Positions 48,731-51,319 of a stretch of DNA of 64,000 nucleotides are shown one piece after another. The notes beneath the pieces were generated by a model. It saw only the letters and a list, made by a program, of their open reading frames with translations, had not been told where the DNA came from and ran no database searches. The position numbers and the translations under genes are program-made. The DNA comes from Escherichia coli (GTDB taxonomy: Bacteria > Pseudomonadota > Gammaproteobacteria > Enterobacterales > Enterobacteriaceae), in the NCBI RefSeq assembly GCF_022846255.1, contig NZ_AP025682.1; one strand, given 5' to 3'. Positions within the stretch are counted from its first letter, which is position 1. Every line of letters starts with the position of its first letter.

Positions 48731-49642
48731 ATGCTGTGGTTCAAAAATTTAATGGTTTACCGTCTTAGCCGCGAGATTTCGCTGCGTGCAGAAGAGATGG
48801 AAAAACAGCTAGCCTCGATGGCATTTACCCCATGCGGCAGCCAGGACATGGCGAAGATGGGCTGGGTACCTCCGATGGGATCGCACAGCGATGCGTTAAC
48901 GCACGTTGCCAATGGTCAAATTGTTATCTGTGCGCGCAAAGAAGAAAAAATCCTCCCGTCCCCGGTGATTAAACAGGCGCTGGAAGCGAAAATCGCCAAA
49001 CTGGAAGCAGAACAGGCGCGTAAGCTGAAGAAAACCGAAAAAGATTCGCTGAAAGACGAAGTGCTGCACTCTCTGCTGCCGCGTGCTTTCAGCCGTTTTA
49101 GCCAGACAATGATGTGGATCGACACGGTTAACGGTTTGATTATGGTGGACTGCGCCAGCGCCAAAAAAGCGGAAGATACGCTGGCACTGCTGCGTAAAAG
49201 CCTGGGGTCGTTACCGGTTGTACCATTGAGCATGGAAAACCCGATTGAACTGACGCTGACCGAATGGGTACGCTCCGGCAGCGCAGCACAGGGCTTCCAG
49301 CTGCTTGATGAAGCCGAGCTGAAATCACTGCTGGAAGATGGCGGCGTGATCCGCGCGAAGAAACAAGATCTGACCAGCGAAGAGATCACCAACCACATTG
49401 AAGCAGGAAAAGTGGTGACTAAACTGGCGCTCGACTGGCAGCAGCGCATTCAGTTTGTGATGTGCGACGATGGTTCACTCAAGCGTCTGAAGTTCTGCGA
49501 CGAGTTGCGCGATCAAAACGAAGATATCGATCGTGAAGATTTCGCCCAGCGCTTTGATGCCGACTTCATCCTGATGACTGGTGAACTGGCAGCGTTAATT
49601 CAAAACCTGATCGAAGGATTAGGTGGCGAAGCACAACGTTAA
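48731..49642 (+). CDS. rdgC: Recombination-associated protein RdgC
   Basis: Start re-derived at [32 protein letters not shown] (303 aa). Confidence 0.94.
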
Positions 49643-49660
49643 TTGCTGATTTACCTTTAA

Positions 49661-49698
49661 TGCCGGATGCGACGCCTGCCGCGTCTTATCCGGCGTAC
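49661..49698. repeat. REP-like palindromic element downstream of rdgC
   Basis: tgccggatgcgacgcctgccgcgtcttatccggcgtac, imperfect palindrome of the REP type. Confidence 0.6.
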
Positions 49699-49799
49699 AA
49701 AGCCACACCAGGCATATAATTATTCGCTACGGCGGGCAATAATTTTTAGCGCAGCAATATTATGCGTTTTACGCTGTAACTTGCTCCAGGGGCGTTGTG

Positions 49800-50078
49800 T
49801 CATTGTTTTTCCTCAAGCCGGTGACGCGCTTCACTGCGAATTTTCCGCGTTGCCCCGATTTTCACTAAATCCCGTAACTGCGAAAGAGCGGGTTGATCGA
49901 CAAATAACAGTAATGATGGCTCCTCTTTTAGCCACGCCGTTTTCACATCGGCAGCCAGCTGTGGATTATTAATAGCCAGCGACCGATCCTGAGACTCAGT
50001 CAATGTCGTTAACAACACCGGGGTATGTGCGTTGCGCAATGCCGTTTGGCGCAAATGAACATTGCGACTTTGCAGCAA
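49800..50078 (-). CDS. Hypothetical 92-aa protein (possibly the ykiA counterpart)
   Basis: 92-aa ORF MLQSRNVHLRQTALRNAHTPVLLTTLTESQDRSLAINNPQ...; lies where K-12 has the small gene ykiA between rdgC and ppnP, but I cannot confirm the sequence from memory. Confidence 0.4.
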   Translation of the reverse strand: MLQSRNVHLRQTALRNAHTPVLLTTLTESQDRSLAINNPQLAADVKTAWLKEEPSLLLFVDQPALSQLRDLVKIGATRKIRSEARHRLEEKQ

Positions 50079-50285
50079 TGCACGCCACCATTCATCATCT
50101 GATTTATCTTTTATCGTCGCCAGTTCCGCAACAATATCTGGAGATCTTCGCTGATATTTATATCAACCTTGACGAATTATGAATATATCGGAAATCGAAA
50201 AAATCCCAGCAAAGGAAATATTATTATGGGTTAAAGAGAGGACATTTCAGAAAAATGCCCTCCCGTTCAAGGGGAAGGCGAGGAA

Positions 50286-50570
50286 TTACAGATAGCGGCA
50301 CAGATAAGAGGTGGGTTCGGCAACTTGCAGATGAAACTCGCTGTGACCGGGAACATTAAACACCGAACCGGCTTCATACACTTGCCAGTCGGTCGCGTCA
50401 GGCAGTAACACATTCAGCGCACCACTGATTACCGTCATCTCTTCAGGCTCAGCGGTGCTGAAGGTGTATTCGCCTTCAACCATAACACCCACGCTGGCGC
50501 GACCAGTGCTGCTGCTGGAAAAGCCGATCGATTTCACTTTGCCGGAAAAGTACTCATTACTTTGAAGCAT
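50286..50570 (-). CDS. ppnP: Pyrimidine/purine nucleoside phosphorylase PpnP (YaiE)
   Basis: 94-aa [40 protein letters not shown]... Confidence 0.93.
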
Positions 50571-50641
50571 AAACTGGCCCTGTCTGGTAGTTGAACATCT
50601 ACTTCACTATAGGGGCCAGAGGCGCTGGCTGTCACGCAAAA

Positions 50642-51319
50642 TTACACCAGTAATTCCGCAGCCAGCCGTGCAATCAATACGTTAGAGAGCAAGACAGGAA
50701 CATCGAGCTGTTTTTGCAGTAAATCGCGATGACGTTGGTGAAATCCTAAACAATCCAGCATGATGACATCAGCCCCTTTTGCCAGTAATTCTTTCCCGGC
50801 ATCAATGATTTTTTGTTCTGAATCATGAATGGGGTTACCCAATGAAAATACTGGCGGTTTCTGCAAAATTTGCCATTTTTGCGCCTGAACGGGCAGCATC
50901 TCCTCAACCGGAACGATAACCCCCACCTGATGATCTTCAACAATAGAAGAAACCAGCGGAGGCAATATTCGCGATGGCTCAAGAAAGATCGTATTACGCG
51001 CAGTCATACTACTAATGTTTGCTGTACTCATTAATAAAATGACGTCATAACCCTGATTATCGAGCACTTCAACCACACCTTGCAGGTCTCGCTCCACTTT
51101 GCGACGCGAAACATGGGCCAGCTGGTTGTCATTTAATAATGTGAGAATTGTGTCTTCGCCTGCTTCTGGCGCGTACTCCGCCATCACTTCTTCGCGGCTT
51201 AACTTCCCCAGCAGGCTATGATGGGAAATATTATCTTCGTCAATGTATTCTGTCAGGAGCGGCAAAACTTCCTGCATAGGTACAATGCCGATAGTCAGGA
51301 TCGCCAACGACGCACTCAT
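50642..51319 (-). CDS. aroM: Protein AroM
   Basis: 225-aa [42 protein letters not shown]... Confidence 0.92.

Follow-up and report, generated by a model that had tools for sequence, protein, structure and literature searches.

The 92-aa open reading frame between rdgC and ppnP of Escherichia coli is very probably the ykiA pseudogene, a 3′-terminal relic of an ancestral gene

Described counterparts of the locus

The closest described system is the ykiA/ykiD region of E. coli K-12. In MG1655, RefSeq types ykiA (b0392) as a pseudogene, which is followed by ykiD (b4732). According to Salscheider et al. (PMC3950696), the K-12 ppnP-ykiA intergenic fragment is a promoter whose start was mapped by 5′-RACE, and BglJ-RcsB activates it through a mutationally verified binding site centred at −79. 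Chromosomal epitope tagging has been reported to detect YkiD along with other small proteins (VanOrsdel et al., PMC6001520), and the word "pseudogene" does not occur in that paper. The mapped promoter and the detected protein together indicate that, at least in K-12, a transcript is made from the unit and the small ORF at its distal end is translated. A ranked literature search for ykiD returned no paper on this gene, and those for SF0329, DUF2773 and b0392 brought up no relevant paper.

In E. coli O157:H7 (locus L006), the same interval carries an intact 2280-bp gene (L006 2031-4310), which encodes a 759-aa "DUF2773 domain-containing protein" (WP_120795310). Its stop codon overlaps the start of the neighbouring gene, which encodes a 149-151-aa SF0329 family protein. 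An intact 759-aa gene (WP_180512811) is also present at the ppnP-rdgC locus of PT62. The window, i.e., the whole stretch of 64,000 nucleotides of E. coli DNA that was analysed, has the gene order araJ-mak-rdgC-…-ppnP-aroM-yaiA-aroL. In strain 2014C-3599 (L012 1-464), and in that strain alone, the annotation treats mak (fructokinase) as a pseudogene containing an internal stop. The window resembles K-12 in its locus, in the order rdgC-ykiD-ykiA-ppnP and in both deletion junctions described below, with 95.7% nucleotide identity, and its YkiD peptide is identical to that of K-12. However, the ykiA of the window is one codon shorter (TPVLLTTL versus TPALLLTTL) and has several amino-acid substitutions, and its upstream in-frame stop lies at a different position. 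Compared with the two intact DUF2773 proteins, the ORF of the window is collinear with the last ~112 codons and follows the same promoter and leader.

Identity of the ORF and content of the spacer

The ORF scan found the 92-aa minus-strand frame, starting with TTG, in the rdgC-ppnP interval where it had been predicted (Table 1). The original prediction saw no recognisable features in it, but the ORF matches Pfam DUF2773 (PF10971) with an E value of 1.4e-38 and 131.3 bits against a cut-off of 25 bits, and the match spans ORF residues 13-92 and profile positions 1-81 of 81. The Pfam model covers no more than the final 81 residues of a protein of ~760 aa. This portion, which survives in ykiA, makes up the terminal helical repeats of an LRV/HEAT-type solenoid. 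The frame stays open upstream of the TTG until an in-frame stop at 50165-50163, giving a total of 120 codons, and homology to the parent gene extends upstream to 50138. The relic thus corresponds to the last 339 nt of the intact 2280-bp gene, about its final seventh, and has no start codon of its own. By blastn, the ORF is collinear with the 3′ end of the intact gene at 96% nucleotide identity. This homology and the DUF2773 match rule out a chance open frame in intergenic DNA with no coding ancestry, an explanation of negligible probability for which the small size and the TTG start speak and nothing else. NCBIfam and PADLOC gave no match for the 92-aa ORF or for the intact large protein.

Table 1. 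Features of the rdgC-ppnP interval in window coordinates
Feature	Position	Strand	Basis or correspondence
rdgC	ends 49642	+	
Palindromic REP-type element separating the stops of the convergent rdgC and ykiD	49655..49695		read from sequence
ykiD, 27 aa (MTQRPWSKLQRKTHNIAALKIIARRSE)	49720..49803	-	translations
Deletion 1 junction, 10-bp direct repeat CGCTGTAACT	49772..49781		10-nt overlap of blastn segments, allele alignment
92-aa ORF, distal part of the ykiA relic	49800..50078	-	ORF scan, Pfam DUF2773
Full ykiA relic, 112 codons + stop	49800..50138	-	~residues 647-759 of the 759-aa protein
Deletion 2 junction, 5-nt filler TGGAG (+ strand)	50139..50143		blastn break L006 2372/4312
Promoter and 5′ leader inherited from the large gene (K-12 PykiA)	50144..50256	-	collinear with L006 from 4312
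ppnP intrinsic terminator hairpin, then T-run	50257..50279	-	terminator scan
ppnP	50286-50570	-	
Collinear block 1	49401-49781		L006 1259-1640, blastn
Collinear block 2	49772-50138		L006 2003-2372, blastn
Collinear block 3	50144-50700		L006 4312-4868, blastn

We suggest that the ORF is very probably the ykiA pseudogene, the 3′-terminal relic of an ancestral Escherichia gene lying downstream of a retained promoter. The suggestion that K-12 has a ykiA counterpart here was borne out, but ykiA is not a small gene; it comprises the C-terminal ~112 of the 759 codons of a larger gene, and in K-12 it is a pseudogene. The doubt that had been expressed as to whether the ORF is a real gene was justified, as it is a truncated relic that RefSeq treats as a pseudogene in K-12. 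PGAP likewise annotates the relic as a pseudogene flagged "incomplete; missing N-terminus" in all ten relic-state genomes sampled, and the next annotated gene after the DUF2773 pseudogene in relic-state genomes is "protein YkiD" or "hypothetical protein".

The segment between the ORF and ppnP (50079-50285) had been described as AT-rich and unannotated. Its GC content is indeed 31-35% (100-bp windows, 50100-50249) versus ~50% in the flanks, but the segment is not empty. Positions 50079-50138 are still relic coding frame, followed by a deletion junction, the old promoter and leader, and the terminator of ppnP. The leader segment matches the DNA directly upstream of the ATG of the intact gene with 97.5% identity. 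From the motif and the spacing given in PMC3950696, a candidate −10 element, CATAAT, can be placed at 50181-50176 with a putative start near 50170. Similarly, TTTTCTGA at 50254-50247 is a candidate BglJ-RcsB box, which fits the wwTTCykA core at the spacing of PMC3950696. The terminator scan gave an 8-pair stem with 6 G-C pairs, followed by ATTTTTCTGA, for the ppnP terminator.

Rfam gave only sub-threshold matches over the interval, namely to the REP-related naRNA4 and one chance match. The former is a partial match of the REP-type element to this REP-derived family (27.8 bits versus a gathering score of 59.5). A 101-aa ORF on the plus strand (49667-49972), antisense to ykiD and the ykiA relic, is unannotated in all genomes inspected and is most likely a chance frame opposite a former coding sequence.

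The parent gene and its stepwise loss

The 759-aa parent protein is predicted to carry a signal peptide ahead of a right-handed beta-helix and a long LRV/HEAT-type alpha-solenoid. In its AF2 model (pLDDT 91.5), the beta-helix covers residues 68-176 and the alpha-solenoid residues ~240-758. An exhaustive profile search for the family yielded 169 cluster representatives, ~35 of which are full-length (roughly 750-800 aa) with 25-35% identity. Most full-length homologues have signal-peptide-like N-termini ending in AxA, followed by a conserved Trp, and full-length relatives match the LRV_2, HEAT and LRV models. Judged against this full-length family, the relic lacks its own start codon, the signal peptide and the N-terminal beta-helix.

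Among described folds, the nearest to the parent protein are the LRV (PF01816), LRV_2 (PF25591) and HEAT (PF02985) solenoids. The modelled solenoid matches HEAT/ARM structures such as the PP2A A subunit and importin-alpha, eukaryotic scaffolds from which no function is transferable, and the E. coli protein itself falls under the Pfam thresholds for LRV, LRV_2 and HEAT. Unlike LRV and HEAT proteins, it has a signal-peptide-like N-terminus and a beta-helix. The beta-helix, a domain absent from the window, matches adhesins, autotransporter passengers and bactofilin (4wa0, 6n2b, 4om9, 3ak5, 2n3d) with 5-11% identity, a likeness of generic fold. Because the fold searches gave generic solenoid and beta-helix matches only, no function was transferred. 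A PDB sequence search with the large protein gave no match.

It was also considered that the large gene might belong to a dedicated two-gene system (toxin-immunity or defence). However, the neighbourhoods of five homologues of the large protein, distant or moderately distant, show no conserved partner, and SF0329 is not its regular partner, being absent beside the orthologue of Escherichia sp. E4930 and beside the homologue P0005. This idea was therefore abandoned.

With the O157:H7 locus as the reference, blastn of the window gives three collinear blocks (Table 1), which define two deletions. Deletion 2 covers L006 2373-4311 (1939 bp) and takes out the ATG (4310-4308) and the first ~646 codons. 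Its junction is common to the ten relic alleles aligned and is also found in states B and D described below. Deletion 1 is an in-frame loss of 372 bp (124 codons) inside the SF0329-family gene. The intact form of this gene carries the 10-bp direct repeats CGCCGTAACT and CGCTGTAACT, and the window keeps CGCTGTAACT. Both junctions are identical in 10/10 diverse relic alleles aligned against the intact sequence. The window thus lacks the DNA encoding the signal peptide and the beta-helix domain (residues ~68-176), together with that for most of the solenoid (~240-646).

Deletion 1 accounts for the composition of ykiD. The peptide reads MTQRPWSKLQR|KTHNIAALKIIARRSE, i.e., residues 1-11 of the 151-aa SF0329-family protein fused to its last 16, so that YkiD does not represent the full-length (~150-aa) family. 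Between strains, YkiD varies in length (26-27 aa) and by several substitutions. The intact neighbour gene scores 81 bits with Pfam (PF25753) and 94 bits with NCBIfam (NF049912), and a PDB sequence search with SF0329 returned only noise.

The SF0329 family, with 542 homologues, shows unusually strong conservation across distant phyla (55-68% identity), the distant homologues being labelled Prevotellaceae, Bradymonadia, Paenibacillus, Zoogloeaceae and Leminorella. Loci of the family were noted at L020 2494-2949, L023 5001-5471 and L024 5001-5483. In two genomes, SF0329 lies within arrays of small unrelated genes, including those for SUKH-3, WGR+DUF4240 and DUF2314 proteins; by analogy, these arrays resemble the immunity-gene arrays of polymorphic toxin systems.

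The distribution of the two deletions was followed by megablast of the rdgC-ppnP interval against 5426 complete E. coli genomes, 5424 of which contained it. Population counts refer to genomes holding at least 80% of the window-like interval or at least 80% of the intact cassette. State A, with the intact 759-aa gene and the SF0329 gene, is found in ~444 of the 5426 genomes (~8%). State B, with deletion 2 only (relic and intact SF0329), is found in ~56 of 5426, which is an upper estimate (500 minus 444). State C, with both deletions as in the window and K-12, is found in 4543 of 5426 (~84%). State D and rarer forms, in which the relic was lost with SF0329 frameshifted or the locus has IS3 or IS1 lesions, are among the ~380 genomes outside A-C.

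The intact gene is syntenic in other lineages. In the sister species Escherichia sp. E4930, the orthologue between ppnP and rdgC is intact (73% aa identity), with no SF0329 gene, and divergent E. coli lineages have the intact gene at the locus with 90% and 98% aa identity. The intact form is therefore ancestral and the relic derived. The reverse, i.e., formation of the 759-aa gene by insertion into an ancestral small gene, is contradicted by this synteny in a species with a 73% identical orthologue.

The order of the deletions can be read from state D (L004, L016), in which the SF0329 gene is full-length but frameshifted and the relic is gone. Its junction, GTGTCAT|CAGTTCCGCAAAAAATACCTGGAGATCTTC, keeps 19 nt of the 5′ end of the relic and the TGGAG filler, which implies that deletion 2 was the first event, and an intermediate should then exist that combines the relic with an intact SF0329 gene. 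A synthetic query for this intermediate matched at least 12 genomes along its entire length (100%) as a single uninterrupted block, with 97-99% identity, and one of the intermediate-state genomes is annotated exactly as predicted. Insertion sequences have inactivated the locus independently in two strains: in VE-T9 (L015 3131-4358), an IS3-family element splits an otherwise full-length large gene, and in VL7S7 (L005 2652-3349), an IS1 stands in place of the whole ykiA/ykiD interval.

Selection, translation and alternative explanations

There is no in-frame ATG across the 120-codon open frame. A moderate Shine-Dalgarno-like match (GGUGG, −6.0 kcal/mol) accompanies the TTG at 50078; it is comparable to that of ykiD (−6.2 kcal/mol), and since the two are equally good, initiation at the TTG is still conceivable. 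Taken together with the open frames, the omega below 1 and the regulated promoter, this motif suggests that translation from 50078 may yield a low-level product. Any such product would stay in the cytoplasm as a few helical repeats of a protein whose intact form bears an export signal, and it would most likely be non-functional.

Absence of purifying selection had been proposed as a sign of a spurious ORF. The relic region shows a pN/pS of 0.62 over 12 alleles (10 relic and 2 intact), compared with 0.02 for rdgC, 0.06 for ppnP and 0.08 for aroM, the pS of these three genes being similar to that of the relic. Among relic-state alleles only, omega is 0.57 (28 nonsynonymous to 15 synonymous changes), whereas it is 0.12-0.32 for the intact gene over its full length and 0.23-0.42 for the same C-terminal segment of the intact gene. 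The relic value comes from a small sample (10 alleles) and could be blurred by recombination with intact alleles; tested against neutrality it gives p = 0.06 and against 0.25 p = 0.006, and it is inseparable from 0.4. An omega of ~0.57 is not distinguishable from neutral, and a functional protein is thus for the most part disfavoured by this test. All ten relic alleles keep the frame open at ~5% divergence, and as the probability of this under neutrality is ~0.13, the open frames are weak evidence for constraint. The nonsynonymous changes among relic alleles include the radical replacements R>C, W>C, R>W and P>S, and frameshifted, decayed and ykiA-ykiD-fused versions occur in public protein collections (P0043, P0044, P0061, P0139). 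Constraint is probably relaxed in the relic, and the balance of the selection data favours a decaying relic.

These observations also bear on co-option, i.e., the proposal that the BglJ-RcsB-induced transcript encodes a helical-repeat protein of 92 aa, or a longer, non-canonically initiated one, with a cytoplasmic function of its own. Such a protein would agree with the frame kept open in all ten alleles, an omega below 1, the Shine-Dalgarno match of the TTG, the regulated promoter and the presence of the relic state in 84% of genomes. However, the frame has no ATG, radical changes and natural frameshifted and fused variants are found, and the relic is wholly deleted in state D and other lineages. 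Moreover, omega is not significantly different from neutrality and is significantly above the long-term value of the parent gene, and the fragment lacks the signal peptide by which the parent protein would be exported. We consider co-option quite improbable. In our interpretation, the 92/112-codon frame is still open owing to recent descent from a real coding sequence and not to maintenance.

It is also conceivable that the relic is kept not as a protein but in cis for ykiD, as a transcript leader, as the Shine-Dalgarno sequence and possibly through upstream translation. The ykiD ATG overlaps the ykiA stop (ATGA), the GAGGA Shine-Dalgarno sequence of ykiD lies within the 3′ end of the relic, the sole known promoter of the unit is upstream of the relic, and YkiD is a detected protein in K-12. 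However, the Shine-Dalgarno sequence needs only the last ~15 nt of the relic, and YkiD is itself a deletion remnant with a variable sequence and length and no known function. Retention of the relic for such a role is therefore rather unlikely.

For the ykiA pseudogene, we propose the following course of events. With the 1939-bp deletion, the large gene lost its start codon and signal peptide as well as the beta-helix and most of the solenoid, and the surviving promoter and leader were thereby joined to the coding sequence at about codon 647. Later, an in-frame deletion of 372 bp between 10-bp direct repeats reduced the SF0329-family gene to the 27-aa ykiD. The old BglJ-RcsB-responsive promoter, active according to the K-12 data, would still serve the transcription unit of the relic, and the main role of the relic frame would be that of a leader of ~370 nt in front of ykiD, a gene with a ribosome-binding site of its own. 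The further possibility that micro-proteins derived from this gene debris (YkiD and possibly the 92-aa fragment) were kept in 84% of E. coli through a gained function has a low probability.

The ykiA pseudogene is already known and annotated in K-12, so that the finding is real but ordinary, and the current understanding of the region is unchanged by these results. The ORF should be annotated as a pseudogene fragment and not as a protein-coding small gene. That YkiD, a detected small protein, is the in-frame deletion remnant of a 151-aa gene calls for caution in small-protein catalogues. The locus provides a clean natural series of stepwise decay on a single common deletion junction, from the intact gene through the 5′ deletion, followed by either a second deletion or disappearance of the relic, to IS-mediated loss.
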